Under the pieces are notes generated by a model. That model saw nothing but the letters and a program-made list of their open reading frames with translations. It was not told where the DNA came from and did no database searches. A stretch of 64,000 bases of DNA, taken from NCBI GenBank assembly GCA_030704615.1, contig CM060733.1:65596001-65660000 (forward strand), read 5' to 3'. The first letter of the stretch is position 1. Each line of letters starts with the position of its first letter. Positions 2,234-56,117 of this stretch are shown piece after piece. This DNA comes from Takakia lepidozioides (taxonomy: Eukaryota > Plantae > Bryophyta). Both the position numbers and the translations under genes were made by a program.

Positions 2234-2295
2234 CTGCAGGGTTGTTCATTCAACTTGATATTAGAGAGGCATGAAACGACGGCTGAGGCATGAAA

Positions 2296-24000: not shown

Positions 24001-26932
24001 CATCTCCCCATTTGCTTTCCCGAGGCCCGCGGAAATCCTTTTCCTTGTCCTCTGGCCCCCAGCGGCTGCTCCATTTGCTGTCGCGTCGATTATCAAAACT
24101 AGTTTCCCGATTATTGGTATCTGCCCATCGCTCAGATGGAAGTCGTCGGAGTGGAAGGTCCCCAGGCTCTCTCCCTGAAGCAGGGCTGTTGTCAGCCCAC
24201 CTCTCATTCCCACCCCGCCGAGTCTGCGGTGGTGGAGGGGCTTGCTCAACAGAAATCTCTCTCTCACCCTCCTTCCAGCGATCACGCCGGGGGGCTACAT
24301 TGTTATTATTCTCTCTCTCCTCTTCTCTCCAACGCTCTCGCCGACTGCTATCAGCCTCACGTTCCATAGAAAGTGTGCGCCACCAGTCTCTGTTTCGCTT
24401 TCCATCTTGGGGAACTCCATCCCCAGCACTGCGCCAGCGCTCTTTAGTCAGCACTTCACTATTTCCGGGCCCCATGTTTGGGGTGCCTGGTGTACGTGGG
24501 GGTTCCTGCAGTTTGCACCTCCAAGTTAAACCACATACCAAATGTCTCTGGGAATTCTCCAAAAAAGAATACTCTGTCCTACTCAAAAATAACACAGTGC
24601 AGCTGAAGCCAAGAGTCAAATCCCACATTTACGGAAGAACTCTGAGAAGGTTTACGAACCCAGGTGGATATCTCCAAACACAGACAATAACCTCAATTGT
24701 GAGAGACCCCAACAACACATACAATCCCTTGATAGCACTGAAAAGGGGCTAGCGTGAAATCCCTACTGATCCCCTTGCGTGCTCAATTGGACCTGTGAAT
24801 CACCATAAACAATGGAGAAAATATCACAGACACCCATGACTCAAAACTAATACCTCCCCTCCCTGGGGAAGAAACCAAGCAAGAAACACTATCACATACC
24901 CCAGATGCCAATGGTGGTTTACTCTCTCCAGGCTTTGAGAAAAGCCACTGTGGTGAAAGAGGTATACTGTTGTCTGAGTTGGCCAGATCTGCACCCAATC
25001 ACAACAAAAGGCGCAATCATTACAAGCATTGAAACTCTCCTACCGCAGACCTGAAACAAATTTTTTGAATGAGAGCACATTAACATTAAAGAGTGACAGA
25101 GGCATGCCTTTAAGCTCATGGTCGGAAGGGGCAGGCAGCAGCTTCGATGCACTCAATATTCCACTCCCTTCATCTGCATCTCCATGAAGTGTTATTCACA
25201 ATGAAGAGCCAAACACTTCAAACCTGGCTACCATGAAGAGATAAGACATTTCTCCATGTGATAGCCTACTAAACTCCCAGCTCGTATTGGAGAGGTAATC
25301 AAAGATCAAATGACCATCGCGTCAAAAACATAAAGAAGAGCTTTCTGAGGTGAAAACCAAGGCACCAGGACAAACATCATGAAGAGATCAAATAGACTAC
25401 TACAGCAGTTATGAACAAGCCAGACACTCTGCCTTGCATCCATGACCTAAAGAGAAGTCAACCAACCAAATGGGGAGAGAAAAACCTAACCCTATACATG
25501 TTTCAGTAGACGACTAAATTAGACAGTCATTTTATGGAATCTAAGCACACCACAAACTATAAATGCAAGATAATTGATGACACTTGCACCTAACCACGTG
25601 GTGGTGCAGTGAAATGACATGACAATATTCGAAAGGCCCACGACTACACATTCTTATACAGTGTCACATGAGCGCAGAATTCCACTGTAACATGACACTT
25701 GAAACCTTTAAACTTAGAAGTAAATTTACATCCGGCAATACAGGCATGGATTCCATGAAAACGTGATAGGTTCCACCAAAATGCAGTAGTTCCATACATT
25801 GCAGGTCACACAGAACAGCTCAATACTCATACAGAAAGTTAGATTCTGAATAAGTTTGGGCTTGCAAAATTGTAGATGGTGTATATTATCGAACATCTGT
25901 CAACCACTCTGGGAACTTTCTCCTCTGTACCAATCCTACTATATAAGGGAGTATTCAATACATTTACAAATGGACCTGATATAGGACCTGCAGCAAAGCC
26001 TCATAGGAAAGAAACTTAGCCCTAGGTGATAATAAAATGAATAAGAACAAACATTATCAAGACAAGGACACCTGGACTACATAATCTAACTACCAACGAG
26101 GTATACCTGTATGTTTCCCTCTACAACATGACATACACATAACACAAGGCCTGCACAGGACTGACTTCTGCAGTCCCAGGACTGCAGCAGCGTAAATCTT
26201 ATTCAGGTCTCATTATGAAACATACTAGTTACATCAATAGGAAGAAGCAGAAAGAAAGAGCAAGAGAAAAGAGTTCTTTCGATGGCAGAAACAAGGGAAC
26301 AGACTTCACAGGGAAGTAGAGACGAGCCAGATGCAGCATGTGAGTTATGCGGCAAACTGTATGACATTTTAGTCATGTGAACAGTCCCTGTTACTCCCAA
26401 GGGTCGTAGTGCATATGAGGGAATTTTGCTACGCGGGTTTTTCTTCATCAATCCCCAGCAGGTTACCAATGAGAAAGTGCAGAGGAGGCACCAAGCAGTC
26501 GAAACAGTTCACATCTGACCCTGGGTTTAAGATGGAAAGCCAGCGGGCCAACTCAGAGGATGAACAGCTCCCGAGTCAAAAACAGCTAGAACCTCAATGA
26601 TCATAGACATACAGACAGCAATATAGAGACGAAGGGAAGAGAGGGGTATATGAGGTAGATCCACAGAAATACAGCACCATTTGGAAGAGCGTTTTGGAGG
26701 AGAGAACTGAGAGAAAAAAAAAATGAGAAATCATCCGAGGAGACTTCGAAGATATGATACGAACACAGGCCAAAGGAAGAAGATAGAAGATGCTGACAGA
26801 GAGGTAGGAGGTAGAGGATGTGAGAGAAAGGGGGAAGAGGGACAGAGACAAACCGCGCAGCTTCCAAGGTTCGGGGCGAAAAGAAGTTCCACCACCACTC
26901 TCCCTGACAGTCTCAGTCTTGCTGTCAGCCAT
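15079..26932 (-). CDS. EXA1: EXA1/GIGYF-like GYF-domain protein, 12 exons, ~2165 aa
   Basis: Phase-consistent GT-AG exons: 26932-26854, 24988-24900, 24505-23438, 23133-22998, 22231-22043, 21782-21550, 21243-20493, 20176-19218, 18817-16611, 16391-16162, 15929-15822, 15527-15079. Motifs: SDNSIPLSPQWL, YPRAKLL (4EHP-binding-like), GYF domain [28 protein letters not shown], KSLxEIQ repeats, and C-terminal GKKKGKKGKKVVDPSLLGFSITSNRIMMGEIQ. Confidence 0.92.
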
Positions 26933-29900
26933 GGATGATCGCGACAACTGCTAAGCTTCTTCCTTCCCCGACTCGATACGCGCTCCTACTCAAACGAGAC
27001 TGGGGCTAAGGTCTTCTGTACACTGTCCGCCCTCACACCCCCCCAACCCCTTGGACAAGTACCACACTACCGAAGCTACCTATCACACCTCCCCATACAC
27101 AGCCTGTGCCCCGCTCCGATGCACCAACTCCAGCAACAATCAAGCATGAGACGATGCAACGAGATGATACAATGCTGCGACGAGATGCAGACAGAATCTG
27201 GGTGCGGCCAAAAGCTAGGGTTGCAAAGTGGGAAAGATGAAGGCACATGAGGGAGACAAGGGGGAAGAGCGCGTCGGGTTGGCGGCGCCCTGTCCCCTTC
27301 TTCTTTTGGCCGGGACCCCTCTCGGGACCCCTTGTGGATGGTCCCGACCCCACCCGTCCCGCACTCGGTACCATCATACGCCCAAAATGACATGCCATGC
27401 ACTTACTTCACACCTCGATCTCACATCAATATATGAAGTGAGAGGTTTGTTGGCCCTCCAAGGCAGGACTACGCAAAGGGTTCAGCCGCTCTTGCCGCAT
27501 TGCCGCTTTTTCTTTCTTTTCTTTTTCCTTCGATTTACTCTTCCAATTCGATCAAGACAATTGCCACCAGAATATTCTGTTCATATTTCTACAGAATGAC
27601 ATGCCATGGATGAACAGTTTCATGGTCTTTAGGTCTGGAGTTCAACTTCTTGTGCATGCTTATGAGGATATTACCCTGCGTGCCACCGGGTGATTCAGGG
27701 CTCAAATCATGTTACCGCGATATTTATTAATAAACACTGTGTGATCTTCCAGCTTTTCCTATCTATTCATAATTATTAGAGGGTGGGGCTTGCATGAATT
27801 GCATGCATTTGTTTTGTTTTGTTTGTTTTGTTTTGTAGCGTAGTTGAGATCTCCCAAGCCACGGGCCAGCCCCCGTGCTTGGTGCCGTTGGAAAGCCCTC
27901 GATGAGGAGGGGTGCACCGGCTTGATCTCATGATTTTTCGACCCGCGGTCGGGAGATATGGAATTTCAAGTATTTCTGGTCTTTGGAAATTCGTGAAAAT
28001 AGAAAAGTGGGCCTTCCTGGAGCAATGATGTGGGAGATTTGGAATTTCGAGTACTTTTGGTCGATGGAAATTCGCGAAAAATAACAAAGTGGAATTTGGA
28101 TATATCAATATATGAAGCCTCGAAAGGGGAGATTGCAAAAATAGCAAAGCGGGTTTTGGGATTGCACTTAGACTTAAGTGACATTGGACATTGGAGGTCG
28201 CACTTGGGTCTTTACATGGGAGACGCACTTGAATACATAGGAGATTGCACTTGGGCTTAGATTTCAATTCTTCACACATGGGCCAATTGCACAAGCTACC
28301 CTAGATCTCCCAAATAGTGGGGTCTCTGGATACATCTAGGGGATTGCACTTCGACATAGATGACACTGGACACTTGGGCCAACGGCATAGGCTACCCTAG
28401 TCAATATATGAAGGAAGCCAGTTTGTTTGTGTTGTTTTGTTTTGTTTTGTTTTGTAGCGTCGTTGAGATCTCCCAAACCGTGGAACCCCAGCCCCGGTGC
28501 TTGGTGCCGTTGGAACGCCCTCGATGAGGAGGGGTGCACCGGCTTGGTCTCATGATTTTTGGACCCGCGGTGTGGGAGATGTGGAATTCCAAGTACTTTG
28601 GGTCATTGGAAATTCGCAAAAAAATAGCAAAGTGGGCTTTCCTGGAGCAATGATTGGCCTTCATGTGGGAGACACACAGCAGATTGATGCTTGTGTGAAG
28701 GGATTTCTAGAGGATATCTGGAAAACCCGGATTAATTCTTTATATGGAGGTAAGTCTTACTACCAACGTCAGCCCCTGACAGAGGTAGGTTCTATCCCTT
28801 TTGTTCCCGCTCAAACTGGGCGCGGGGTCAATGGCCACAAGGCTACGGCAAACAACGTCGTATGAGTACAATCTATGCGCTACTTTCCAATCGCATGTTT
28901 CACAGATCTCTTGGTGTTAAGAATACAACGGCATATGGTACAATAGAGATCGCACTTGGGCCTCAACATAGGAGACACACTGGGATACATAGGAAATTGC
29001 ACTTGATCTTAGATTTCAATTCTTTACATATGGGCCAACAGCATATACTACACTAAAGATCGCATTTGGGCCTCAACATATGAGACGCACTTGGATACAT
29101 AGGGGATTGCACTTGGGCTTAGATGATACTAGACACTTGGGCCAACGGCACAGGCTACCCTAGTTCATTATAAATACATCAATATATGAATCGAGACATT
29201 TGTTTTGTTTTGTTTTGTAGTGTTGAGATGTCCCAAACCACGGCACCCCAGCGCTGGTGCTTGGTACCGTTGGAAAGCCCTCCATGAGGAGGGGTGCACC
29301 GGCTTAGTCTCACGATGTTTGGACCTGCAGTGTGAGAGATATGGAATTTCAAGTACTTTTGGTCGTTGGAAATACCCGAAAAATAGCAAAGTGGGCTTTC
29401 CTGGGACAATGATTGGAGCCTCGATGGGAGATATATCAATAATGACTAGATATATTACTACTCGATAAATTCATGGAAAAAAATAAACGGGGCCTTGACG
29501 TCGTAGACGTACTTGGATACATAGGAGATTGCACTCGGGCTTAAATGACACTGGTACATGGGAGATGCACTCGGATAAATGAATAAAAGATTGCATTTGG
29601 GCTTAGATAGGCCTTGACATAGGAGACGCACATGGGAAATGCCCTTTGATACATAGGAGACGCACTTGGATACATAAGAGAATTCACTTTGGCTTCGATG
29701 ACACTGGACACACTTGGGCCTCTGCATGGGAGATGCACTTGGATATATGAATAGAAGATTGCACTTGGGCTGAGGTGGGCCTCAACATAAGAGACACACT
29801 GGGTTACATAGGAAATTGCACTTGGTCTTAGATTTCAATTCTTCAGACATGGGCCAAGGACACAAGCTACTTTAGAGGTAGCACTTGGGCCTATAGATGC

Positions 29901-31079
29901 ATAAATGGGTACAATTTTATTTTCGGATCGTTTTTTACCTTTAACCAGGCAGTTTCGGCATTGTATTGCCAAAACATAACAAGTTGTTAGTTAGTTGGGA
30001 ACCGCTGATGAAGCACCTAAGAATTTAGATTAGGTCTGAGACGAGCATCGAGTGGTACTCTGGCGTTAAAACGACAATAGAAGCTGCAAGGACAGCGTTC
30101 CAATTCGGTACAACTAACGGCAACTTGGAACCGTTTGAACCGTACGAGGGTGATTGTAAAGACGGGTTGCGATCTGTCTATTCCCCCTCTTCTCTTATCC
30201 AGTAGGATCACACAGTGAGAGCACTTGGCAATTTAGAGTAGGAATTGTATAGCGATGAAATATTGTAACAACAGCAGGACGCTGCATCGAAACAACATCA
30301 GAACGGACGACTTCGGAGTGGAGCATGGCCAAGCCAACGGTGCAGAAGGGTAGTTGGAGGTGACTTCCAAGCTTTTATGATCGAGTGGCAGGGTCAAGAA
30401 CTCCAGAGGCATCACCATTAGAATGTTTTTTCCAAGGAAGCAGTGAACTTCATATACGACGGATCCACGAGGAACGGCGTTTGGAAAAGGTTTTTTACTC
30501 CGATTGACCTGAGGATTTACAGGCACTTACAAAGCCCTTAATCATAATTTATCACCAATTTTTGTGATTTATGATTAAGGTTAGCAGCGGCACCGAATTA
30601 CAAGGCCTACGGTAGCGGCGACCGATTTGAATGATTTCTATGGATTTCATTGGAGGAAAAGGCTTAAATTCGCCCTATGGGTTGTTTGGGATGATAATCG
30701 TCATCTAGCGGTCAAAGAGGATGAGGAAAAACCCTTTGACCGGTCTTTCGGATGAGTTCCATCCAAATATTAGTTTTTTTTTATTAGTTTTTAAAAAAAA
30801 AAATCTCCCTCTAGTTTATATTAGTTTAAGACTATCCTACAATAGTTTTAGAGCCCCAAAAAGAGTATAGAAGAAGGGCAAGGCTTCCTTGTTTTTTCAC
30901 CTAGTTCATTTGTTTGCTTTGCTATTGCTTTGTTGTAGTGTAGTTTGCTAGAGGGAGCCTAGGTCCTAGAGAGTAGAGCTTGAAGCTCTCTAGTTTAGAA
31001 ATGTGTGTTTTTTAAAGAGCCAAGGCAAGGTGTCTAGCTCATTGTAGGCCTTGAGGCCATTTGCTTTTAGTAAAGGAGA

Positions 31080-31434
31080 TGTCAAGTTAAATAAGCACAG
31101 TGTGAAAACAGCTAGAATAAAACTAGTTATTTGTATTTAACACTTGGATTTAGGTCAAGTGTTAAATCAGGTGTCAAGTTTAGTTTTGACACCTGGTCTG
31201 TCTTATCTTCACGAGAGCGGCAGTCGCGCAGCTCATCTCTCTCGAGTTGAGCCTGCGCGACCGAGCTCCTGCATTCTTCAGATCTGAGTGTATGATGGGA
31301 GTGTAGGTTGTTGTGGGGTGGAGTCCCCATAGCTTGGGGTGCCCCTGGCTCGACTATTATCTTAAAGAGTGATCTTGAGGGATTGCATATTTCTTGTGTT
31401 GAGAGTGCGTGTCCTTTTTCAAGTTTGTTTATCA
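31080..31434 (+). repeat. Terminal repeat A1 (355 bp)
   Basis: Appears identical to 42529-42883; the 102-aa ORF-track translations of both copies are identical. Confidence 0.97.
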
Positions 31435-31450
31435 CTCGAGAGAGATGAGC
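31435..31450 (+). promoter_or_regulatory. Self-priming primer-binding site
   Basis: CTCGAGAGAGATGAGC is the exact reverse complement of 31231-31246 inside repeat A. There is no TGG tRNA-type PBS. Confidence 0.85.
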
Positions 31451-31699
31451 CTATCTAGTTTTCTAGTGCTAAGCTAGATACAATGTTCTTTTAACACTAT
31501 TATAATATATGACTTGGGGCAGGAGCCCATCTAGTCCTGCTGTTGCCATGGGTTTGCGCTTGTTGTTTACACATGGGCGTTAGTGGTGATTAGGGTGTAG
31601 TCATCCCTGTTTGTGGTGGCGGGTGCGCGCAGGGGGCCTTGGCGACTCTGCTGCCTGAGCGCTGGGGCAGGCTGAGCACCCAGTAGGCCAGTCGTGCCC

Positions 31700-32750
31700 A
31701 ACTTGTGTGGTCATCTGTGTTGCAGCTCAAGAAGGGCCATTGGCTGGTAGCCCATTTTGGCTTGCAAGCATATTGCTGGATTCACCGTGCTCTGTAGAGA
31801 CTCGCTGCCAGCGTACAGGGAAAGGTAGTGGAGGAGGCAGGTAGGTCGTGGGCCTTCTCCACTTTGTCCTGAATGGGAATCGCCAAGGCTATCTCCATAA
31901 CGAAGGCGCGGTTGTCTGTTAAGAGCGCAATGCCATCAGTCGCAGGGTGGAGGAGCTCGATTTTGAGAAGTCCAGACCATAGTTTGCTACCGTGCTTAGT
32001 AAAGGCAGTGATCGGTGAACTGGAGGTGTCTATGTGTTGTGAGGGGCCTGGCGTAGCATACTTTTGGGATCAGAGTGGGAGCTGCCGGCATCACTGTTGA
32101 GCGCACTCGGTGCTCGTTTGATACCTAGGTTGTTAGCCAAGAGCACCAGGTGGCGTAGGTGTTGCAGAGCGGAGGATAATCTGGTGGTCTGACGGGTTGG
32201 TTGTCACAGGAGTTTGTGTTGCTGGAGCGCCTGGGGCATGTGTGTCATTGATCGTTGGCAGATTCTGCGCAGAGCGAGTTTGGTAGGCGCGCTCCGTTGC
32301 AAAGAACTGTTCGTCAGAGAGATGCATGTCTCTGATCTCGGCGTACCATCTGTGTAGCCTTCCATTGCCACTTCGTTGGTTGAGTGTTGCTTTCTAGTGG
32401 AATGGGGTTTTGTGGCTCGAGATGGCTGGAGTGCAGAAGGCATGAGGGCAGTTGGACACCTGCCGCGCACTGTTGAAGAGGAGCTCGTGGTGGCAGCGCT
32501 TACAGGCCACCTTGATGTGGGGCATTGCAACTTCCTGCCAGGCAGTACACGGGTAATGCAGCTGAACTCCACATTGAGCCAGCACAACGAGCTGCTGCAC
32601 TTACGCCAGCCCCTTTGCAGCAGCAAGCCTCCAGGCAATCTATTACTGGTCATCTCTCTTCACCCGATTCGTTGGAGGGTAGTCTAATGTCAGGCAGCTG
32701 TGAGAAAGGCCAAGCAAGAGCTGTCCACAAGGTCACCAGATCTTAGGCCA
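31700..32750 (-). pseudogene. Degenerate antisense accessory ORF in the 5' region of the element
   Basis: Broken minus-strand frames: a Cys/His segment (ACKRCHH...NCPHAFC), a Pro/Thr linker, then WSGLLKIELLHPATDGIALLTDNRAFVMEI...KVEKAHDL. Confidence 0.4.
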
Positions 32751-33639
32751 TTTGCTGGAAGGGAAGGGCGCTTTCTGACAGTGTCAACCTCCCAGGCTGG
32801 CGATCCTCAGGTTTTGGAGGATTGAACCTCAAGGTTGTGTTTGTTGCAGAGAGTATGAGAGTGGGAGACTGTGGACTCACCAGGTGACACTTGGTGTATG
32901 AGTGGGATATGAGCTGAAGGGGCCCAGCTCACTACACGACCTGCTTGGTCTATGTTTACAATTCAGGACTTGAGGGCAGCCTGTGCCAACTCCATGGAAA
33001 GGCTTACACAATCAGTGATAGCAGATCTGTTGTTGTCACCTTGAAAAATCAGCACGCATGAAGGGCTGAAAGCGTTCTTGATCAAGCTAGTCAGTTCTGG
33101 TGCTTTCCGGGGTTGCATTGTAAGTGCTCTTGCTTTTGTTGGGAATATTGGTGCAAAGGATTAAGGCTCGGCATAGCTACGGATCTCGACTGGAGGAGAG
33201 CAGGTCACTGGTAACCAAGAGCTGTGGGGGGTGCATTTGTAAACACAACTGAAATCCTAGAAATTACAGGGCACGTGGCTAGGGAACCTAGGATGCCATA
33301 TAGAACTTAGGGAACCGGGAACCAGTTACCAGACATTTTGGGTGTAACTTTAAATTGTTAAACTTGAAAACTTTAAAAAAAAAAAAAAAAAAAACCCTTT
33401 TTAATATAATTTGAATGATTTGGAGCCAAATTCATCATATCTTTGTCAAATGGACTCTGGTTGACCCAGTTTTTGGGGGGATAGCTGCAGAAAGGGGAAA
33501 TCTACCTATCTAAACCTGGTTTCTGCTTTGGGGACTCTGCTAAAAATCTATGGAATTTTTAGAGTGTGAGAGTGCCATGAAGGATCCACAATCCTGTCTC
33601 TAGAACCTGTGCTGGTCTATATGAGAGACAAATTGGTGG

Positions 33640-34401
33640 ATGTACTCCATGCATGGCTGGGGAAATGAGGACGTAATTGAAGGGCAGGTCTCTTCTCTTA
33701 GTCTGTGCACACAAGGGGACACGATTTATGTTTCCCAAGGAACTCAGACTGATTTGAGTGGAGAACAGTTGGACGAGTTGATTGCATACTGGGAGTCAGG
33801 CATTAGCAGTAGACAACAGACTACTGTAGTTGGCATTGAGGGCCTCAATATCGCCTTGGACAGTCAGAACTCTGTTGGAGCCAGCAGTTCTGCAGCTGTA
33901 GGTGAAATACCAAAGTGGGTGAAAGCTAGGCTTGGAACACAGCCAAAGACAGCCCCGGGGACCAAGGTGTTCAGCCACAGGGCCGTGTGTGTATTGGAGC
34001 AGAGGAGCAGGAGCTGCACAAGTTTGTGCAATTAGACAGTGTTGCAGTCGGACACGCTCTGCACAAGGCAACCACGAGCGGGGGTTCATTAGCGAGGACA
34101 AGTTTGTTCTGTTTGAAGGCGATGCAGTCATTCGCAATGAAGATACCCGCAATCGTCTCAAACTTTCGAGTTGAGAGACTATCAGACCCTACCTTTGTTT
34201 TCTTTAGTGTTCAGTGAGCGGGAGATAGCAGAGTGTTGCTTTGTCTCTACCTGGCAGAAAGAGGAGGAGGGTTGGTTAGAGCGAGCTACTGTAGCTTGGG
34301 ACAAGGTTAGTGGCAGGTTTCTGGACATAGATATACCTCCTACACCTTACCATCAAGCAGAGCGAGGCACTTTGAGAGAAGTCTGGAAGTTGATAGCATA
34401 G
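33640..34401 (+). pseudogene. Frameshifted accessory ORF upstream of gag, function unknown
   Basis: Overlapping frames 33640-34035, 33987-, 33932-34174 and 34171-34401 join into a globular-looking ~250-aa protein. Confidence 0.4.
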
Positions 34402-34892
34402 ATCAGGATTAGATCTTGCTTGGGCGGGCTTCTATTCTTCCCCTCCATCTCTGTACTATTTTCATTACCTTGTACTTGTAGTTGCCAAAGCCTCTCTTGG
34501 TGGAGGCCAGTCAGTCCGGGGTTTTGGGCTGGGATATTCTGCAGGATCAGCATTGCAGCTGGATTTTGGTGTGGGGGTGTTGATGTTTTGATTTCTTGTG
34601 TTTGGATCCCCCCCAACACCTGCATGCTTGACTGTGCGCCATGTTGGTTTTGTGTGGGCGCTTGCTTTCATAGGGCGGTCAATCCTAGAGTATGCTGTCG
34701 GTGGTGAGGCTGGAGTGATGACCAGCAAGACCACCGGTGTTTCTTCTATGGTGAGGCTGGGTTGATGACCAGCCAACCATAGGAGTTCTTGCGGTGGATG
34801 CAGGTGCAGGTGCCTGAGCCACTGGGATATGACCCTTAGACTGCAACAGGTGCCCACCCGTGTCACTATTAGATTAGTACTAGAGCCTTATA

Positions 34893-37500
34893 GTGTCACT
34901 GGAGGAGGTGCACATTGTGAGTGTCATTACGGAGTTACCCAAGGGTTTTGAGGGGAGTACGGCTACAGGCAGTAACAGTGAGAGTGGGTTCACAAGACGA
35001 GGTATTCGGTTCAGACCACCTTCACCGCCACCCTCAATTACTGTAGAGTCAGACACAGGCTCGGAGGCTTCATCAACAGGTGTGCACTTTCATTCGCCAT
35101 TGTTGTGGGACGACATGGAGGAGATGTATGGAGCTACCAAGGGGCCTCGTAGGTACTCTGGAGCTGTGGGCACAATCGAGTTGGATGACTTTATCCAGGA
35201 GTTCGACAGCTGGTGTGATTTGCAGCAGATGCGCAATCCACATCTATTCACCCCATTCATGGCGTGGAAGGGACTGTTCCAGCATTTGGAAGGCCCGCCT
35301 ATGGACGATTACCACGAGTTCAGGCGAGGACATGAAGCAGAGATTGAGGAGTGGAGGATGTATTGGTCACCTGACTACATCTCCATTACTCGAGGCATGA
35401 CGCGACCAGTAGCTGCATCAGTACCAATAGCTCCCACTGCCAGCACTAGTAGTGGAGCAGGTAGTGCTGGTACTTCTGCAGGTGGTACCAGTTCAGAAGG
35501 TGCTACTACTCCTCCTGCCAAGCTACAACACATGTGCCTAGATTCAACCCGGTGGTGGAGTTCTTCCAGGAGTTGCGGAGGAACTACCAAGGTGTACGGA
35601 CAGAGAAGCTGCGAAGTTTGCAAGACTTCCAGCGCAAACCCAGTGAGAGCCTGCGAGAGGCGTACACTCGTATGAGGCGCTTGATAAGTGTGACCCAAGG
35701 GGTTACTGAAGCTCAGGCAATCCAGTTTTGGTATGGAATTCTGGACAAGGAGCTCAAGAGAAGGGTGCGAGATGCATGCCCTGTTACAAGCAGCCCAACC
35801 CACATTAGCAGATGTGTTTCTGCTGGCTGAGCGGATTGAGCTCAACATGGTGGAGGAACGAGTTGTTACAATGGATTTGGCAAGGACATGCCTGTACGGG
35901 GCACAGCTGTCAGCCCACAAGCACAAGGGACTGCCCAACAGCGTGGTCAGGGGGGCAAGGTTGCCCAGCCCAAGTTCCATGGAGCTTACAGGGGCCTCAG
36001 GTGCAGAGGCCCGTGGCATCTTTTGCAGGCCAACAGCAACCAGGGGTGATATGTTGGACATGTGGAGGACCCCATGTCAAGAGAGATTGCCCAGAGAGTG
36101 GCAGAAGGCCGGCACAAGCACAGCCTGCACAGTTGCAGTGTGGGCATTGTGGCAAGTATGGGCATGGAGATGCCCAGTGTTATGACTTGCATCCTGAGTT
36201 GCGCCCAGGCCAGTTCCAAGGGAACAATGGTGGCCGGGGGGCGAGGTGGACCAGCCCAGAGAGGACGAGGTGGTCGGGCACGAGGTGCAGGCCAAGGGCA
36301 AGCTCAACATGGCCAAGGACGCGGAGGTCAGGGCGTTGATCAAGGCATGGCCAACCGGCTTCAGCAGCTAGAGCAGAGGCTCGCTGCCATGGCTATAGCT
36401 CAGGCGGGTACGGCTCCCAGGCGGGATGGTCCACCTCCTGCTCCTGAGGGAGGAGATATGGGAGGCATGGGATTTATGTGCGGAGCAGCACTACCACTAG
36501 AGCAGGTGGAGTCTGCTGCAGCCGTGACTCGAGGAGCAGCACGAGTTCCTGAGCCACGAGGTGCAGAGGTGGAATTGGATCCACAGCGTGGGGAGGGAGC
36601 CGTCAGGCAAGGCTTCCTCAGTCATTCACATTGGGCGGAGACTGTGTCGACGCCATCCATGGCACCTAGTTCTCGCCCGACTGTTACCGAGGCGGAGGTT
36701 ACTATGCCATTGGGGAGAGCTACACGTGTGCAGCATTGACTCCTGCTGCCAAGGCTAGTGCGGCCGGTGTGTTGTTGGGGGCAGCCACCTCTGTGTGTCA
36801 AGCCCCACTGTTCTCGGCAACCATGATTGCGACGCCGGGGGTGAGACCAGCTGCAGTGTTCAGACTAGCAGCAACACTCTGAGAGAGGGGAGGTCACTTC
36901 ATCTTCTGCGGAGTTAGTGGAAGGTGTAGTGAGCAGGATCCTCGGATTTGAGGGTCAAGACTTGCCACGGCTGCGCCCTGGCAAGCTGCAGCTGCCAGTT
37001 GACGGAGCTGCCAGCTAGGCCAGCCATTGAGCGCGCCATGGTGACACCTGGAGTTGTCTTGTTAGACAACCAGGGAGGCATTTTCACTTTGAGTGGACCG
37101 GCAGGCAAGAAGTACGGCCACTGCGGGTCTTGTTGACTCAGGAGCTCAGCCACTGATGTTGGGCAGAGCTGCTATTGCAGGTTTGGGCCTCATGGAGGCG
37201 GATATGGAGCCTTGTCCTTTCCAGATACAGACATCTCTGGGAGGATCAGAGCAGGCTCGGGCATGACACGGCATCAGTTGGCTATTAGACTGCAGCCGGA
37301 TCATCCTGTAGATGGCTCAGTGATGCGAGCCAAGGCCATTGTGACAGACGCGGTCTCTTACGATGTCCTCGTTGGTGGGGCAGTGTTTATACCCCATGGG
37401 CTTCACCCTGGATTTCTGGGAGGGTCAGCATCCTACAGGCCTGGATGGCAGTCAGGGGATGGTCGCCGTGCACAGCTCCCTGTGACATTCATTGGGGTTA
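34893..37500 (+). pseudogene. gag: gag (two zinc knuckles) and aspartic protease, frameshifted
   Basis: RYSGAVGTIELDDFIQEFDSW; LQDFQRKPSESLREAYTRM; CWTCGGPHVKRDC and CGHCGKYGHGDAQC; protease DSGAQPLMLG at ~37135 and YDVLVGG at ~37360. Confidence 0.85.
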
Positions 37501-37839
37501 TTGCAGCTGCCCAGCGGGGCAAGATGCCAACACTAGCCGCCTTCACAGCTGCAGTTAGTTGGCCTGGAGAGTTGCTGGAAGGCAATGCCCATGCAGAGGA
37601 TGTGCCACCTCCAGCAGAGCAGGATGACATGCATGGTACGGCGGAGTTGCCTGCCATGGTTTGCTCACACTCCGTTGTGGGGTACGAGCAAGGATTTGCA
37701 GCAAGCTGCTGATGGACGCGTGCAACAAGCTGGGAAGAAGCTTTTGTACCGTCAGGAGAGGAGGAGAGTGCGGTGATTGACCAGGGCCACCTCAGTTGTC
37801 GCCATTGGACACCACACCTCTTGTGTGGCAGCGGCCGGA

Positions 37840-38790
37840 TGAAGGCATTTGCCTTCTGGACTTGTTTGGCGGGATCAGCACCGGATTGGCTGCTGTGCTA
37901 CAGGCAGGTGGTTGCGGGTAAGGCGTACCTGTATGTGGAGAGGGATGAGACTGCACGACGCGTCTCACTGCGCCATGTGGCTCAGTTGGTACAGCAGTAC
38001 CCTGACTTGTGCCTGTGTCTGCAGTTCGTGGATACCAACAAGCCTTGCCAGCAGACATTCCTTGTTGGGGGCGCAAGATTTGGAGCAGGTTGGCTCCATT
38101 GATCTGATAGTGGCAGGTTGGCCCTGCCAAGGGATTCATCAGCCGGGCATGGCAATGGATTGCGAGACTCGAAGACGGGTCTGTTTTGGGAGATGGTGCG
38201 GATTTTGCGCGCTTGCAGCTTCATCAAGCTGTATCTCCAGCATACATCTTGGAGAATGTACCACTGATGGGTGATTCTCGGGCCAGGGTGATGGCCAGTG
38301 TGCATCAAGTCCGGTCGTGGCTTGGGTCAGCAGTGTTGCTGGATGCAGCTGCAGTGGGGTCACGGGCTCATCGTCCACGCTATGGTGGACTAACTTGATG
38401 CCACCAGCACTGCTCAAGCGTGCATTTGATGGGGTGCAGCGGCCAGCACACCTCACGTGGATGGCATTTTGGACACAGGAAGGCAGTCTCAACGTGTGAG
38501 ACACGATGACCGTTCGCCTTTGCAGTGGTCAACAGGGTGGGTCAACACGAGCAGCATTACTACACTGCTCAGCTTCCCAGGATCCCATGCTTTTCGGGAT
38601 GGTGGACCTGGCCTCCTGTGGATGCTCAGTTGCAGCAGTTAGTGGAGCCTAATGCCGACGAGCGAGAGCGGGCTATGGGGTTTTCCACTGGGACCACGGC
38701 GGTGCCTTCCCTTTCTGAGGCATCACGTCGTCAGGTGTTGGGGCAAGCAATGGATCTCAATTGCTTGACCTGGATGTCAGCTTGGCTATG
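37840..38790 (+). pseudogene. C5-cytosine DNA methyltransferase domain (DNMT3-like), frameshifted
   Basis: Motifs in canonical order: I CLLDLFGGISTG (~37850), II YLYVERD, IV IDLIVAGWPCQG (~38100), VI YILENVP (~38243), VIII LLDAAAVGSRAHRPR, IX ERERAMGF, X RRQVLGQAMD (~38730). Confidence 0.92.
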
Positions 38791-39099
38791 GCTGAGCAAC
38801 GTAGAGTGCGGAGTGCACTTCCTTGATGGTCTCTCTGCCTACCGAGACGGTACAGGCAGCGAGTGGGGGCGAGCCGGTGAGGACCACGAGGTGTAGACAT
38901 CCATGGCACATGTGGGAGGTGCTCGAGGTCAGAGGGAGTTGGCAGAGAAGGCAGCTGTGATGAATGAGGAGGTCTCAATGATGGATGATGGGCAGGATGA
39001 GGCCTTGTCATTGACTGAGCAGGAAGGGGGTATGCTCAAGAGGTTGCAGCATAGCAACCACGGACGCGTCCTCTACCTCTAAGCCCACTGGACTTAAGG

Positions 39100-42000
39100 T
39101 TGCAGTTACGGAGGACAATTGGGAGCCTGATTGGACCCATTGTCACGGAGGAGAGAGACGACGTATACGGCGGTTCCTGAGGGCTTACAGGAATTGCTTT
39201 GCCTTCAGTTTGAAGGACTTGGGAGCACTGAAGGGTCAAGAGATCCGTATTGAGTTGGCCACTGACACGCCAATCTTTCGGAGACCCTATAGATACAGTG
39301 ACATGGAGAGGTCTTTGATTCAGATGAGGACTCAAGATCTCTGGGAGGCAGGTTTGGTGGAGCTCTCTGGTGGAGAGTATGCTTCAGCCACAGTGATGCC
39401 AGCTAAGAGGGATGTCTATGGCAATTGGACGGAGAGACGTATGTGCGGTGATTACCGGCCTGTAAATCGTCAGACCAAGTCCGATAGGTATGCCATGCCA
39501 ACACCAGAGGAGATCTTTGATGCCATTGGGCATTCCAAGGTCTTTAGCACGTTGGATTTACGATCCGGATATCACCAGTTGCCGATCAAGGAGGCGGATA
39601 AGCAAAAGACGGCATTCTGGGGGATCAATGAGCACGGGAAGGATTGCCTATACCAGTGGCGGTTCTTACCATTTGGGCTTAAAAACGCTCCCGCTGAGTT
39701 TCAAAGAGTCATGGACAGGATTCTAGCAGGGGTGGAGTTTGCTCGGTGCTACATAGATGACATCATCATCTTTAGTGCTACGGTGGAGGAGCATGAGAGA
39801 CACCTTCAGGGGGTATTTGAGCGCTTGAGGACGCACGGATTGAAGTTACATCCGGGCAAGTGCAAGTTTTTCCACAACCAGATTGAGTATCTGGGTCACA
39901 TGATATATCCTGGAGGATTGGGGGTACAGCAGACTAAGGTAGAGTCCATTGCACAGGTTCCACGCCCCACGGATGTGAGCCGAGTTCGAGCTTTCATGGG
40001 GTTAGCAAACTATTACAGACGGTTTGTTAAGGGATTTAGTGCCATTGCAAAGGCTCTAACCAAGCTGACCAAGGTGGACCAGGAGTGGCAGTGGGAAGAT
40101 GAGCAAGAACAAGCTTTTCAAGAGCTCAAGGCGAGGTTGACCTCGGCGCCCATCTTGAGACGACCTATCAGGGGGCGTCCTTTTCAGCTGCATACAGATT
40201 GGAGCATGCTGGGGCTTGGAGCGGTGCTCACACAGGTGGATGATGAGGGAAGAGAGTTCGTAGTGGCTTATGCTAGCCGCTCGAACAATGCTGCAGAGTC
40301 TAAGTATAGCTCATATGAGGGAGAATGCTTAGCTGCAAGTGTGGGCCGTGGCACACTTCAGGTGCTATTTATACGGCAATCTCTTCACCCTTGTCACGGA
40401 TCACCAACCACTCAAGTGGTTGATGGAGTCAGACAAGCTTACGGGGAAGCTTGCACGGTGGGCACTCATCCTTCAAGAGTATGACTTTCAGGTGGTGCAT
40501 CGACCGGGTTTGGTCAATCGAAATGCAGATAAGTTGAGTCGCAATCCATGCACGAGCCAGCAGGATGACACTGGAGCTCGGTGGCATGGTGAGACGGACG
40601 AGGAGATGGTGCCCGGATGGCATGCATCTGCATTTCTGTGTATCTTGGTAGCGGAAGGCCAGGTTGGACCTACAACAGGGATGACTGCAGATAAGTGTCT
40701 GAGGACCCTGAGGCCAGCAATGAGCAGGGTGGCGCCAAAGATATACATGAGGATTCAGTTGTGTTGGACTACCTCCGCAGTGGAGACACGGCAGCCACTA
40801 TGACTGCCAAGGAGAGGGATCGGATCCTACAACGAGCCAAGAGGTTCAGGTGGGAGGGGACACACCTACTCCGAGTGTGGGAGGATGGTCGAGTGAGGAT
40901 TGTGCCTCACCCAACACAGCGGGCACGGTTAGTGCGGCATGCCCACGAGGAGTTGGGGCATTTTGGGGTGCGACGCACCCATAGCCTACTGCAGGGGCAG
41001 TATTGGTGGCGTGGTATGCACACAGAGGTGCAACAATTTGTGGCTAGGTGCATGGTGTGTGACAGGGTGCGTGCTTCATTCAACGCCCCTACTCCACAAT
41101 TGCACCCTCTTCCGATCATGGGATTGGGCTACAGGTGGAGTCTTGACTTCGCAGGGCCGTTGCCACTGACCATGCGCCACAACAAGTATGTGTTGGTGAT
41201 GGTGGAGCACTTCTCCAAGTGGATTGAATTGGTTCCATTGCCTGATAAGGCTAGTGAGGGGCTGCGTATGCATTCTTGGATTGTGTGCTTAGCCGATTCG
41301 GTGCTCCAGCTGAGGTACTCACGGACCAAGGGAGAGAGTTCTTGGGGGAGTTTCAGGCTTTGTGTGACAAGGCCTTGATAGACCACCGCACCACTTCTCG
41401 GGATCATCCTGAGGCCGATGGCTTGGCAGAGAGAGTTGTTCAGACAGTAAAGAGGGGTTTGCGCAAGTATGGCTTGCAGAAGGGACACCTAGGAGATTGG
41501 GACCTTCAGTTACCCTGGCTAGCCATGGGCTACAGGTTCAGCAAGCAAGCATCACTTGCCTCCTTCTCACCATACTTTCTTCTCTTTGGCCGAGAGCCGG
41601 ATTTGCCTACATCCATTCGCAGAGAAGCTGCTACAGTTCTTAACCTTGACGATCCGGACGTGTGGGCACGTGCATGTGAGCAGCGTGCAGAGTTGTTCAA
41701 GAGAGTCATGCCCATGGCTTTCGAGAACCTTGCCATTGCACAACACCGTGATACGTTGAGGTATGCTACCATACGTGGTGGGGGCTATCGTCCTGGGGTT
41801 CGGAGATTCAACCCTGGTGACTATGTCTATCTGCAGCAGACTGCTCCTACGACCCTGGATGTGACTGCAGGACGTGTTATTTTGAGGGTTCGAGAGGTCT
41901 TGCCCTCAGGCGTCTTGGTCTTGGAGGGTCGGGATGGCATAACTTGGAAGGACCATGTGCGTAATTGTGCGCCATGTCACCTTCCGAATGTCGATGGCAG

Positions 42001-42184
42001 GATTGACCCAAACCTGGCAGTGGTATCTGCAGGTTTGAGGTGCATGTTGTGTGGGTCTGCTAAAGGGGCAGCCACCATGCTGGTATGTGATCGGTGCTCT
42101 AGAGGTTGGCATATGGGATGCTTGACTCCACCTCTTGAGATGGTTCCGGATGGGGATTGGTTATGTCCACATTGCATTGGATAG
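39100..42184 (+). CDS. pol: pol: reverse transcriptase, RNase H, DDE integrase and C-terminal PHD finger (~4 frameshifts)
   Basis: [32 protein letters not shown]; RNase H LHTDWS/TDHQPL/NAD; IN H-H-C-C, SLDFAGP, TDQGREF, GLAER; PHD CMLC...CDRCSRGWHMGCLTPPLEMVPDGDWLCPHC. Confidence 0.96.
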
Positions 42185-42440
42185 GGAGTGGATACAACCA
42201 TGGAGGCTAACAAGAAACGCAAGGCCCAGCTACTAGGAGACCTTGAACACACGAGATCTTGGCTCAAGTTCATAGATTGCAAGACGGCGACTAACGATGG
42301 GGCTACTCTTGTACCCGGCCTCTTGGTTGATAGAGTTTGAGCACGATAAAGACAGTGATAGAGGACTTAGTACGGCTGTGGCTATTACATCTTGTAGCTA
42401 TCTGGAGGTAGAGGGACCTATCCACCAGCTAGGGGGGCGA

Positions 42441-42969
42441 TTGTGCTAGACTACTTTATTGTGCATATATGTGTGGTGTGGTCTGGACAGCGATGTAGTT
42501 GTGTAGCGATATGTATGCGCACGACAGCTGTCAAGTTAAATAAGCACAGTGTGAAAACAGCTAGAATAAAACTAGTTATTTGTATTTAACACTTGGATTT
42601 AGGTCAAGTGTTAAATCAGGTGTCAAGTTTAGTTTTGACACCTGGTCTGTCTTATCTTCACGAGAGCGGCAGTCGCGCAGCTCATCTCTCTCGAGTTGAG
42701 CCTGCGCGACCGAGCTCCTGCATTCTTCAGATCTGAGTGTATGATGGGAGTGTAGGTTGTTGTGGGGTGGAGTCCCCATAGCTTGGGGTGCCCCTGGCTC
42801 GACTATTATCTTAAAGAGTGATCTTGAGGGATTGCATATTTCTTGTGTTGAGAGTGCGTGTCCTTTTTCAAGTTTGTTTATCATTGTGCTAGACTACTTT
42901 ATTGTGCATATATGTGTGGTGTGGTCTGGACAGCGATGTAGTTGTGTAGCGATATGTATGCGCACGACA
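42441..42969 (+). repeat. 3' repeat block B1 (42441-42526) - GC - A2 (42529-42883) - B2 (42884-42969)
   Basis: The 86-bp B (TTGTGCTAGAC...CGCACGACA) occurs twice, flanking a second copy of A. Confidence 0.97.
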
Positions 42970-45629
42970 GAGAAGTTTGTGAAGCATCAAAGTGAGGAGA
43001 TTGCCTTGGAGACGAGTAGGAGAGCTGGAGATGGACTACCGTTGATGAGTACCAAGGTGGACTGTGTGGAGTGTCACACTACCAAGCTATAGAACATCCC
43101 AAGCCTTCATTATCCCTTTAGGTGACTTACCACTTCCCTTGAGATTTCATGCATTATGCATTGCACACCAAGCTAGGAGCTTAAGTGATATTGGTTATAT
43201 ATGTGTTGAAGGAATAAAAAAACTAACCCTTTCAAGTAGAAAGGAGTCTATGTGCATTTCCAGTTGGAGTGCTATACTTTACGTGGAAGGGGAAGGTCCC
43301 CAAGTGTTTACCTCGAAGGGTTTGAGGTCCTTACACCAAAAGAATGGTGTAAGTTTTTTTTGTTTTTTTTTTTTGTTCAATTATATGCATACCCAGAGCT
43401 TGGAAAGCTCTGGAAGTGACTAACCAGCAGCCAGGGTGGCTGATTTTTAGGCCTTAGGCCAACTAATATCCAAAGGATAAACCAAGGCAAGAGACCTTGG
43501 GGGGAAGGAGGGTTTTTGTTTGTTTTTTTGGATTTAGGAAGCTTTTCTGGTCGTTGCCCAGCAGCAGAGCGGGCCGTTGGGCCAGAAGAAGACGCGCCAT
43601 AGCCATTTGCAAAGGAGGGAGTATAGCCAAGAGCCGTGGAAGGCCACGCGCCTCGGCGCACACTAGCCGCGGGCCCCCACGTTGACTGTGCCGTACTTTT
43701 CAGCCATTAAATCAGCACGAGGCACTTGAATAGGGGTGGGGGGGTGTCCCCCTAGGACCCCGCGGGGTCCCTGAGTACGGCGGACCGCTGGATAAACGCA
43801 CGGACCCCACGACCGACTGCTGGTCCGTCACGCGGACCCCTCCGCGCTGCCCCACGCCGCGCCATGTGGCGGGCAGGGCTTTGTCCGCTGGGTGCTGCGG
43901 AAGCGCCTGCTGAAGGGGGTATTTCCTACCTTGTACTATTATGTTTTTTTGATACCCCTCTTAGGGGCCTCTTAGGGGAATTGTGGGTCTTTTTACGATC
44001 GGATGGAATGATAAATTCCGTAACTCGGGTATGTTAGAGCTTTAAGGGAGAGGGATTGTATGAGCCATAGCTCAGTCCGGGGAGTTTAGGAGCCTCCGAG
44101 CTACACACCGAGACAGCGTGAGAGAAAATTTGGACAAGAAATACACTAGCCTTGAATCTAGGCTACAGTGAGGAATAGTGTCAAGCATAGAGGTAGGGGA
44201 TGACGGATTCCGGGCATAGAAAGGGTCTCCACTAGCCTTAAGTCAAGGGAGTGGAGGGCACGTGGGGAAAAACAGCCCGGCCCCACCACACTTAGCATGT
44301 TTTGAGCCAGCCGATGAATTATTGAGTGACGGATGGGCGGCGGGCCCCGGATTGCGTTCATCCGTAGTCGTGGATTGCGACGGCTATTCCCCGCATTGGG
44401 AGCCATTCCTCGGCGTTCCCATCCTCAGGGTTGGTTCCCAGGCTGTTCCCTGGGTCCCCCAGAGGTAATTTCAGGATCATTGGAGCCTAGGAAGGATTCT
44501 CTACCTTAGAGGTATTTTTTCTGATTTACTTATTTTTTATTATTTGCTGGCCATTTGTGCATTATTAATCATGGTAGTCCTAGGGACTTGAGAGTATATT
44601 CACCCTTTTAACACCATAATTGGGAAGGGAATTGGGCATTGGGAAGGGATTTCCCCCTCTTCCTCCCTACACTCGGTAGATGCTTTGTGAAGAGACCAGG
44701 TAAAGTATTCCGACTGTTTGCGTCTCGGGGGTTTAGGCTTGTAGGATTTTTAGTAAATAAAGAAGACTTGGAAGGCAATTGCAAGACTAAAATACATAAA
44801 AAGACTATAGGAACTAGAAACGCAACCTTGCCCTGTGAAGTAGAAATTGTATTCTCTTTGCCGGTAGAATTAGAATTGTTTTATTATCGCCGCCACTAGC
44901 ACTGTCGTGGATCCCCTGCACTAACCGCAGTCAGGTGGACGGTTCTTGAGCCCAATCCATTCCGTTACACACCTCGACCCCTCCTAGCAAGTACGCCATC
45001 ACCCTGACCGCGTCGGTCCAGGGTTCGTCAGGGCCTCGACGTAGGATACCCACTTTGATACATAAGGGATTACACTTGGACTTAGATGACATTGGACACT
45101 TGGGCCAACGGCATAGGCTACCCTAGTTACAATTTAAAATAACAAACTTAGATATAGTATGCACGGTGGCGATCCCGTGGTGGTTCCAGATGTGATAGCA
45201 GAACTACTTGAATTGCAGACAACGAATCGAGTCATAGCACATGGAGTAAACAACATGCCTCCACATGGCGCTAATGAGAAGGGTGAGAATGGGGTGCTAA
45301 ATAAAAAATGTGTACATACATGGAGCTTGCTTAGACATTAGACTTAATAGTAATATGAAACTGCACACTTCACCGTTTACATGTAAGTAGGGTGTGCAAA
45401 TATGAGGAATCAATCACTACAACTTGCACACAACAATTCAATGGTCTTCACAAGCTGGTGAGGCTAGGATCGAGCATTGTTGTGACCAGTGATTTTAAAA
45501 AGCTGTGACTCGGAGCGATTGGAGCACGGAGAATTCCTATTCTGAGAGCTGATTGAGATCCCGACTTGATTTGTCGATGACAAATCAAGTATGATTACAG
45601 CCTACTGTGTTTTGCTTGACATAGTAACT

Positions 45630-46300
45630 CACCGCAACTCGCTGACCTGTGTCCATGGCTGCTTACATGCATGGGTTCATACCTGGATGTGTCGCCTCCC
45701 CTGCAACAAACAGTCTTCCAATAAGGGGCTCAGCAAGTGTACTCCTAGCACCATCTGCTTTAATAGAAGGATTTGTGTAACCCCCTCTCACATACATTTC
45801 GTTTGCCCAACTGAATATGCAACCTCCTTGGAAGTAGACAAATGTTGGATGCGATGCATCATTCTGAGGGTCTGTATCCACCTTTGAAAAGCCACTCCTG
45901 ATGAAGAACCTGTGTGGCATCCCCAGTGAAATGGAAACCTTATCTAGCAACGTTCTCTGGCTATGCTTTCAGCATACACACTGTCAGGTTTTTTGCATTC
46001 ACATCCGTCACTGTAGGTGGATTGGCTTTCCCAAATATCCCATCCAGCTGAGAAAGTGCTCACCGAAAAATCTCTTCTTCTGTCAGTTGTGACATGGCAA
46101 CAACAACTTGCCCAGCAATGACTGCCACGATGACGAATTTGCCCAAGGTAGATGGTCAACTGGAAACAGCAGCGACAGCAATTGATAGAACAAGGACTGC
46201 TAATGAAGGCACATTCTTCAACACATTTTGGTCTGTTTCTCCCTGTTATTAGAATCGGCCCTAAATTTTTATGGTGAATTTTGCAAGTTAGCTTGTTGGT
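45630..46300 (-). pseudogene. Flavin-containing amine oxidase C-terminal remnant
   Basis: SWANEMYVRGGYT...RSTLAEPLIGRLFVAGEATHPGMNPCM*AAMDTGQRVA matches the WxxxxxxRGxY...FAGEAT...A..G.R end of amine oxidases, with an in-frame stop. Confidence 0.7.
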
Positions 46301-55839: not shown

Positions 55840-56117
55840 GACTTGATGAGGAGCAGGAAGCTACCCTGTTCGCTGTACACCCAGAGTGGGAGCAAGTTGC
55901 AGAGATGCAGCTGGAAGGCCTAAGTTGTTTAAAAGGTATCTGTTGTGGTGTAGTGACAGCAACACCAATTGAAGGTGAAACAAGCAGTTACCCACCACAT
56001 TTCTATGAAGAAAGAGAGGGAGAAATGGAAATCCTAGAGGAACCAGCCACTGTGAGTTTACAGGATGAAGTGGTGACTGGTTGGACAATCACAGGTGATG
56101 AGTAGGTGAGAGAAGTG

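Follow-up and report, generated by a model that had tools for sequence, protein, structure and literature searches.

Why retrotransposons should carry an enzyme of the class that serves silencing has been a question since 2018, one so far confined to algae with few tools. Gypsy elements with a DNMT3-type methyltransferase are already known from streptophytes (PMC5890265), and are named again in bioRxiv 10.64898/2026.05.21.726589 and in PMC12344493. One of them, KnitGypsy-Dnmt3 of Klebsormidium nitens, is described as having the Gypsy domain set, an unrearranged and intronless DNMT3-type domain that retains the key residues and is under purifying selection, and DIRS-like repeats in the order A-coding-B-A-B (PMC5890265). 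These features recur in the element considered here, which occupies positions 31080–42969 of a 64,000-nucleotide (nt) stretch of Takakia lepidozioides DNA (the window: assembly GCA_030704615.1, contig CM060733.1, positions 65,596,001–65,660,000 of the forward strand). It is almost certainly a Ty3/Gypsy retrotransposon with its own DNMT3-type methyltransferase and PHD finger, in the domain and repeat arrangement set out below. A passage of one opinion paper holds that land plants, such as tracheophytes, lack methylase-bearing transposons (PMC6338049).

All domains of the window element lie on the plus strand, in the order gag, protease, DNMT3-type methyltransferase, reverse transcriptase (RT), RNase H, integrase and PHD. 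Pfam matches gag, RT, RNase H, H2C2, rve and PHD; the D-D-E integrase domain set is present, and the order protease, RT, RNase H, DDE is of Gypsy type. No tyrosine recombinase was found; rve and H2C2 are present, and the target duplications are of 4 bp. An earlier sequence-only reading, made by a model from the letters of this window, had given the same domain order and knew of no such layout characterised in embryophytes. The order stands; the layout with its split repeats is largely that of KnitGypsy-Dnmt3 as published (PMC5890265).

Two further features, a conserved stop codon and rearranged ends, point to a mode of copying and insertion that has not been described. Neither the stop, the split repeats, the self-priming site nor the internal end junction figures in the sequence-only reading. 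The best overall explanation, given a probability of roughly 0.6, would combine a leaky stop, methyltransferase made at the level of Gag, methylation of the element's own DNA, and integrase cutting inside the long terminal repeat (LTR). The comparisons draw on the best 80 of 122 metagenome loci plus 2 genome loci, found with an integrase–PHD query and not with the methyltransferase. Two aspects of this material count against the explanation: the loci are not independent, most belonging to one subfamily; and the evidence consists of sequence and models, with activity, protein, RNA and circular DNA outside the observations.

The methyltransferase domain

The methyltransferase (37832–38776, plus strand) contains the C5-methyltransferase motifs in order: I (37853–37873), II (37926–37946), IV (AGWPCQG, 38113–38133), VI (ENV, 38243–38263), VIII (38360–38380), IX (38660–38683) and X (38738–38755). 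The sequence-only reading had placed them collinearly, in sense orientation and between protease and RT, and this is confirmed, as is the catalytic cysteine, which is kept in motif IV. The window copy has 11 frame breaks here (10 of them base losses) and no stops, and its motifs are spread over three different frames. The Pfam profile PF00145, proposed as a check, matches intact relatives and does not match any single-frame fragment of the window copy between 37137 and 38893. With X placed at the breaks, protease and methyltransferase together (36763–38776) are 55% identical to Marchantia MARPO_0091s0058 over 662 positions, and 37832–38776 shares 48% identity with a full-length, intact polyprotein. 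The proposed likeness to DNMT3 is borne out by intact relatives: their 29 best solved-structure matches by sequence are all DNMT3A, B or C, and the predicted structure of one (predicted local distance difference test, pLDDT, 92) has DNMT3A as its best fold match (template-modelling score, TM, 0.75).

The domain is a family trait. It is present in 40 of the 45 loci with enough flank, the remaining five being interrupted, truncated or internally deleted. Clustered at 80% identity, the 32 full domains form 7 groups, one of them with 24 members. Two intact pairs could be measured for the ratio of nonsynonymous to synonymous substitution rates (dN/dS) and gave 0.08 and 0.12, compared with 0.04–0.05 for RT and 0.02–0.05 for integrase; between the window and its relatives the ratio is 0.08–0.31, with dS near saturation. 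Methyltransferase and RT distances correlate across 24 elements (rho 0.54; 0 of 5000 permutations). By these estimates the methyltransferase is under purifying selection, with dN/dS about 0.1, and is very unlikely to be the one-off capture or the neutrally evolving passenger that the sequence-only reading had allowed for. Pulling the other way are values of 0.44–0.87 among decayed copies of one subfamily, and the near-saturation of dS in most distant pairs.

On the simplest reading, for which the odds are about even, the methyltransferase would methylate newly made DNA of the element itself, either ahead of insertion or as it happens; marking of new DNA has been proposed earlier for algal elements. 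The reading gains weight from the predicted abundance of the methyltransferase in the particle (see below). The domain may instead be kept for another role: it might bind or modify nucleic acid, RNA or DNA, inside the particle, methylate DNA of the host or of foreign origin, or restrain the element itself. This is a real possibility that falls short of probable. It draws in part on observations that tell against own-DNA marking. The Klebsormidium domain failed to methylate DNA in yeast, a result that its authors call inconclusive, leaving the role open (PMC5890265). The element itself gives no signal of CpG or CHG depletion, its CpG observed/expected ratio of 0.40–0.60 being no lower than that of the rest of the window (0.28–0.69). 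The domain, moreover, occupies two different places within the clade. Another role is harder to reconcile with catalytic motifs preserved under purifying selection, and with the report of de novo CG methylation by related DNMT3 domains carried on DIRS elements (PMC5890265).

A stop codon between methyltransferase and reverse transcriptase

The methyltransferase closes the predicted open reading frame 1 (ORF1: gag, protease, DNMT), and a conserved stop parts it from RT, RNase H, integrase and PHD (ORF2). In locus L086 a gag–protease–DNMT frame of 1369 residues is followed by one TAG and then, in phase, by an RT–RNase H–integrase–PHD frame of 1047 residues. The intact locus L147 likewise has two in-phase ORFs with a single TAG between them, and the junction in L090 is alike. 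The earlier suggestion that the methyltransferase is part of the polyprotein thus holds for ORF1 and fails for the RT part. An intact protease–methyltransferase–RT frame, which had been expected of the family, is not what the closest relatives have: they carry the in-frame stop.

The stop has a recurrent context. In 30 of 39 loci an in-frame TAR-CAR (R, purine) precedes RT by 231–264 nt, compared with a background of 5% in random windows; the motif is off frame in 5, the window among them, and absent in 4. (The window stop is off frame because of a frame break just behind it.) The TAR-CAR stop is found in all 7 methyltransferase groups, which are less than 80% identical to one another. CAR YY (Y, pyrimidine) follows the stop in all 30 in-frame loci, positions +4 and +5 being pyrimidines throughout; the sixth base is A in 8 loci and C in 22. 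In the window, TAG CAA CCA (39052–39060, plus strand) matches the tobacco mosaic virus (TMV) consensus CAR YYA exactly, and in plants CAR YYA alone is reported to be enough for readthrough (PMC2754532). Another study contributes a contig piece of 525 letters, which covers 490 letters of the window (38711–39200) with 2 substitutions, neither of them in the TAG; its net length difference brings the methyltransferase end and RT into one frame.

Stored proteins offer a parallel. Among 46 database matches to the domain, 27 are protease–DNMT proteins that end 59–183 residues past the domain, without RT. They include Marchantia Mp4g09160 and a Calypogeia protein; the Marchantia cluster has 18 members, several of 1278–1281 residues, and the Calypogeia cluster has 11. 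From where these proteins end, a stop may be presumed in both genera.

The stop is probably read through to make RT, RNase H, integrase and PHD. If used in this way, it would put protease and methyltransferase at the level of Gag, with only a fraction as much RT, integrase and PHD. Four observations weigh against readthrough: the largest subfamily has CAA CCC, off the consensus at the sixth base (22 of 30 loci); the same subfamily has an AUG three codons past the stop, permitting re-initiation; the search that returned the 46 matches excluded fused proteins of more than 2000 residues; and the stop is missing, with the two parts fused, in more distant relatives and in P0018 and P0116 of the same 22-row clade.

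ORF2 might be made by other means: by re-initiation from an AUG close by, from an internal promoter or through splicing, any of which would leave the methyltransferase at Gag level. An AUG stands at codon 3 or 4 past the stop in 23 of the 30 loci, and no conserved structure was found behind the stop in five sequences (z −0.4 to −2.1). There is also a precedent in the gag-pol junction of Candida Tca2, described as having a minor promoter and no readthrough in yeast (PMC2194720). These routes are nonetheless unlikely, given a stop placed exactly in frame, a CAR-YY context preserved in 7 groups and the sufficiency of CAR YYA in plants. Nor do L086 and L147 have any AUG ahead of the RT start: the first AUG past the stop is codon 117, inside RT, which starts at codon 84.

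Repeats, ends and integration

The window element starts with TG at 31080, finishes with CA at 42969 and is flanked by the 4-bp target-site duplication GAGA (31076–31079 and 42970–42973). Its repeats, all on the plus strand, run A1-body-B1-A2-B2. A1 (31080–31434, TG..CA) is identical to A2 (42529–42883) over 355 nt; B1 (42441–42526, 86 nt) is identical to B2 (42884–42969), whose terminal GACA is the right end of the element. At the B1/A2 junction (42523–42532) the right end, a spacer of two bases and the left end meet head to tail, forming the palindrome GACA-GC-TGTC. Directly 5′ of B1 lies a purine tract (42431–42440), the predicted plus-strand primer, with an equivalent before B in relatives. 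The 16 nt that follow A1 (31435–31450), the putative primer-binding site, are the exact reverse complement of A1 positions 152–167 (31231–31246), the predicted 5′ end of the RNA.

Relatives show the same construction. The junction spacer is 2 nt in all 21 junction-bearing loci of the large subfamily, and the palindromic junction recurs in L086, L090, L147 and L148. Set against the 16 nt paired in the window element, chance pairing reaches at most 9 nt among 3000 random 30-mers, and the fold z score of the self-priming site is −6.6. Self-pairing of 9–23 nt (G-U allowed) occurs at a comparable position in 8 of 11 large-subfamily loci, and of 12–13 nt in L147; the paired sequences differ between three subfamilies. 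Both ends are present in 8 loci, of which 6 have an exact 4-bp target duplication, as does the window element.

The ends themselves come in several types. Counted as distinct insertions among 43 loci of one subfamily, 11 have the form A..B-A-B, 20 the form A..B, 2 are fold-back copies and 1 is of unclear type. The fold-back copies stop precisely at the inverted start of A, and in several copies the first base of B2 differs from that of B1. In L074:1285-1798, L077:3363-3878 and L079:1414-1929 the right end reads B-A and then the inverted first 180 nt of A, ending GACA; these inverted-A ends are likely fold-back products of self-priming.

Repeat order, palindrome, purine tract, self-priming site and end types together suggest the following scheme. 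The working LTR would be B-GC-A. RNA would start inside A and prime itself by the self-priming mechanism of Tf1; the purine tract would serve as plus-strand primer, giving DNA of the form [B-GC-A]-body-[B-GC-A]. Integrase would then act on the internal GACA/GC/TGTC rather than on the DNA ends. Cutting of both repeats, or of a 1-LTR circle, would yield A-body-B; a single cut in a 2-LTR circle would yield A-body-B-A-B, as in the window element; and a plus strand folded back onto the primer site would produce the third type of end. Circular LTR DNA is usually regarded as a dead end. There is good reason to think that integrase cuts at the palindrome inside the LTR instead of at DNA ends. On the other side of the balance, self-pairing falls below 9 nt in 3 of the 11 large-subfamily loci and is absent from L139; only 6 of the 20 A..B insertions show a visible 5′ end; and A..B could also arise by B1 × B2 recombination after insertion.

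That last point is taken up by a scheme of PAT/Ngaro-like copying, in which the B-A junction would serve only as a template for rebuilding ends, integration would be of the usual kind, and A..B copies would be later B1 × B2 deletions. The order A-body-B-A-B is indeed that of DIRS-class elements (PMC5890265), and B1 and B2 are close direct repeats, between which a deletion preserves the target duplication. Such copying seems improbable here. The purine tract before B1 and the self-priming site after A1 stand where a single B-GC-A LTR would have them; A..B copies outnumber A..B-A-B (20 versus 11); the fold-back ends break off where the inverted A starts; and the changed first base of B2 is what an end-joined junction would leave.

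State of the window copy

Frame breaks crowd into ORF1, which has 31–32 of them, mostly base losses, with 0–1 stops; the part from RT to PHD has about 3. Decayed relatives mostly show the opposite, more stops than frame breaks. At many of these breaks, contigs from up to four studies, under one organism label, are of a different length from the window, as seen in the 12 of 30 contig comparison rows that were inspected; the contigs mix many element copies. The sequencing-run matches, with no RNA run listed among them, are all contigs, whose depth gives neither copy number nor expression. The breaks look like long-read assembly errors in a young copy, and the element was likely inserted recently. 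A one-off capture or a decaying fragment, confined to this copy, is a very improbable account of the methyltransferase: the uneven spread of breaks speaks for it, and the shortage of stops, the length differences among contigs, the identity of A1 with A2 and of B1 with B2, and the family-wide presence of the domain all speak against it.

The PHD finger

The C4HC3 PHD finger (42041–42175, followed by the ORF2 stop; 42041–42184 in all, plus strand) is in frame with the C-terminal half of integrase, and the proposed check against PF00628 gives a match with E 6.6e-11. Its position at the integrase C-terminus is as first described; the idea that it replaces a chromodomain is not established, the clade standing apart from the plant Ty3 rows of the RT tree. 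(Pfam finds no chromodomain at the integrase C-terminus of the window element or of intact relatives, only PHD.) The closest solved structures include CHD4, PHF12, KDM5B/KDM5A PHD1 and ATXR5. The KDM5B/KDM5A PHD1, ATXR5 and CHD4 fingers read unmodified H3. Among 57 distinct PHDs of the family, the residue two before the zinc-binding histidine is glycine in 54, alanine in 2 and proline in 1, and never the cage tryptophan. From the missing tryptophan and the known structures, the finger is on balance predicted to read the H3 tail unmethylated at K4, and a PHD reading H3 would steer the insertion site. PHDs are known in Chlamydomonas Gypsy elements (PMC9940879, PMC8557442). The sequence-only reading had likened the pairing of reader and methyltransferase to DNMT3: both domains are present, and the analogy is only a loose one because reader and writer are placed on different ORFs.

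Relatives and distribution

A search with RT returned 64 proteins. In the RT tree 65 of 81 rows form one clade (Shimodaira–Hasegawa-like approximate likelihood-ratio test, SH-aLRT, 100), apart from 16 other Ty3 rows; the tree contains no labelled Tcn1, Tf1 or Chlamyvir references. The clade includes Marchantia, Coleochaete, Closterium and the chlorophyte Hariotina, and within it the window element groups with Marchantia and two metagenome loci. The closest named relatives of the window element belong to Marchantia and Calypogeia. The family searches gave no match to a protein named as Klebsormidium.

A profile search gave 385 clusters at 50% identity with E below 1e-30. Among the best 150 of these, the commonest complete layout is RT–RNase H–DNMT–integrase–PHD (27), which, beside the protease–DNMT layout, gives the methyltransferase its two positions in the clade. 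A sister group (P0268, P0269, P0272, P0276, P0279, P0284, P0363 and P0382) has DNMT between RNase H and integrase, includes Hariotina reticulata and forms a single clade in both RT and methyltransferase trees.

ORF1 of the window (35115–38950) is 61–62% identical to the liverwort proteins P0261 and P0306, and the gag N-terminus and RT are 78% identical. The RETICULATA host gene (see below) is 68–70% identical to liverwort RETICULATA proteins. Set beside each other, these values could possibly reflect horizontal transfer or slow evolution.

Prokaryote genomes yielded 5 loci, two of which are this element in a cyanobacterial bin. These two, L147 and L148, are contigs of a genome labelled 'uncultured Synechococcales cyanobacterium'; they are this eukaryotic retrotransposon, and the label is likely due to binning contamination. 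The viral collection yielded 66 loci, none above 42% identity, and was set aside. Five loci (L071, L072, L124, L076 and L119) have internal deletions with intact ends, some keeping protease–DNMT without RT–RNase H, others losing gag to RT.

Other features and neighbourhood

The remaining domains of the window element are as follows, all on the plus strand. Gag (35115–36240) has a zinc-knuckle-like C-terminus and broken frames, its N-terminus being 78% identical to Marchantia ORF1. The aspartic protease (36996–37490, DSG at 37135) also has broken frames, and is matched by Pfam in intact relatives. RT (YIDD at 39750) and RNase H occupy 39297–40485, and integrase, with its H2C2 finger and D-D-E core, 40794–41743. 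Besides the known ORFs, L086 and L147 contain only gag-frame pieces above 170 amino acids. No Rfam family was found in 30500–43500, and no tRNA genes were found.

Between the primer-binding site and gag lies a long leader (31451–34850) with a poly(A) run near 33376–33395. It has no homolog in Pfam, in the 82 related loci or among stored proteins, and its part 33625–34032 has no Atlas match either. The leader is G+C-rich near 32–33 kb, with short minus-strand frames. The part 31451–33500 is covered by far fewer contigs than the element body, and may be an insertion peculiar to few copies. Degenerate, mutually related repeats flank the element at 27840–29900 and 44900–45130, and CHG content is low at 28–30 kb; the element may have landed in an older repeat.

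The host genes in the window are a RETICULATA-related gene (11467–12444, plus strand), a GYF-domain protein of several exons (15079–24628, minus strand) and an amine-oxidase-like exon (45663–45968, minus strand). Named matches to the RETICULATA-like gene are to land plants only, none above 80%. A 48-row tree without labelled hornworts or algae places it outside the ferns and seed plants (98/89) and, with weak support, beside the moss clade (81/65). The land-plant host read from the letters is thereby supported, and a seed-free plant is likely. The stretch 52819–62000 contains a second, unrelated Ty3 element, with RT–RNase H at 56290–57936, integrase pieces to about 59100 and more ORFs behind, and also a gag in opposite orientation at 52819–53952. 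A tandem array at 2290–4290 consists of about 16 units of 116 bp with an internal palindrome, and is flanked by DNA-transposon-like ORFs (800–2245, minus strand; 5652–7877, plus strand, without a Pfam match).

Comparison with known systems

Among the papers listed by full-text searches, none describes in its title or the opening of its abstract this family from a land plant, its readthrough-type stop or the mechanism of its ends; subscription papers, theses and Repbase reports lay outside the search. Passages of PMC6317226, PMC3350952, PMC10952607, PMC6453930 and PMC2774666 contain nothing on these topics, and no mention of six Marchantia gene ids was found in the literature. A full picture can be drawn tentatively, as something less than probable: a large green-lineage Ty3 clade, alive in bryophytes including Marchantia, would have shifted its integrase site into the LTR, would integrate circular DNA by DDE chemistry, prime itself, load DNMT3 at capsid level by means of a tobamovirus-type leaky stop, and place pre-methylated copies by its PHD.

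If true, the stop predicts the amount and timing of the methyltransferase made, and the end structures would explain DIRS-like repeats in an element with a DDE integrase. Such ends likely escape LTR finders, and methyltransferase genes of this kind may be miscounted as host enzymes. Multi-copy Marchantia ORF1 proteins of 1278–1281 residues make the question of why these enzymes are carried testable in a genetic model. For the specialist, the surprise goes beyond the land-plant range: it is the combination of a readthrough-type stop with an internal integration site.

REM1 of Chlamydomonas is reportedly a PHD-bearing Gypsy element with the module in reverse frame. REM1 is mentioned in PMC2774666. 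Another Chlamydomonas element, Gypsy-7a_cRei, likewise shows PHD as an accessory domain of a green-lineage Gypsy element and a proposed guide to insertion; unlike the window element, its listed domains include no methyltransferase (PMC9940879). EpiLTRs/DAM-LTRs are also Ty3 elements that pair methyltransferases with a chromatin reader, but theirs are a chromodomain, DAM and a DNMT4-related enzyme, and the preprint separates them from Gypsy-DNMT3 (bioRxiv 10.64898/2026.05.21.726589).

An in-frame stop between two ORFs is shared with TMV (UAG-CAR-YYA; PMC2754532), with murine leukemia virus (MuLV), and with SIRE1 and Tca2 (PMC2194720). Here, in contrast to all of them, the stop follows protease and methyltransferase, both of which fall on the abundant side. 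A primer site complementary to the element's own LTR, and not to a tRNA, is known from the Tcn1 clade of the Tf1/Sushi group (PMC6317226). Tcn1, however, has ordinary LTRs and chromodomains, and the passages of that survey mention neither methyltransferase nor PHD (PMC6317226). PAT/Ngaro DIRS elements, SymbioDIRS-Dnmt3 among them, have the order A-body-B-A-B, an internal copy of the end-to-end junction and, in SymbioDIRS-Dnmt3, a DNMT3 domain (PMC5890265); they use a tyrosine recombinase, whereas the window element has a D-D-E integrase and a 4-bp duplication.

KnitGypsy-Dnmt3, with K. nitens compared by description only, comes from one alga and has its DNMT in the Pol ORF (PMC5890265), whereas the present element is from a land plant, with DNMT ending ORF1 before the stop. 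The available text of PMC5890265 names neither PHD, which here is borne on the integrase, nor Marchantia, and its main-text parts make no mention of readthrough, self-priming or target duplications. Because DNMT and RT lie in separate ORFs, the window element would be a variant of KnitGypsy-Dnmt3 rather than a strict member.

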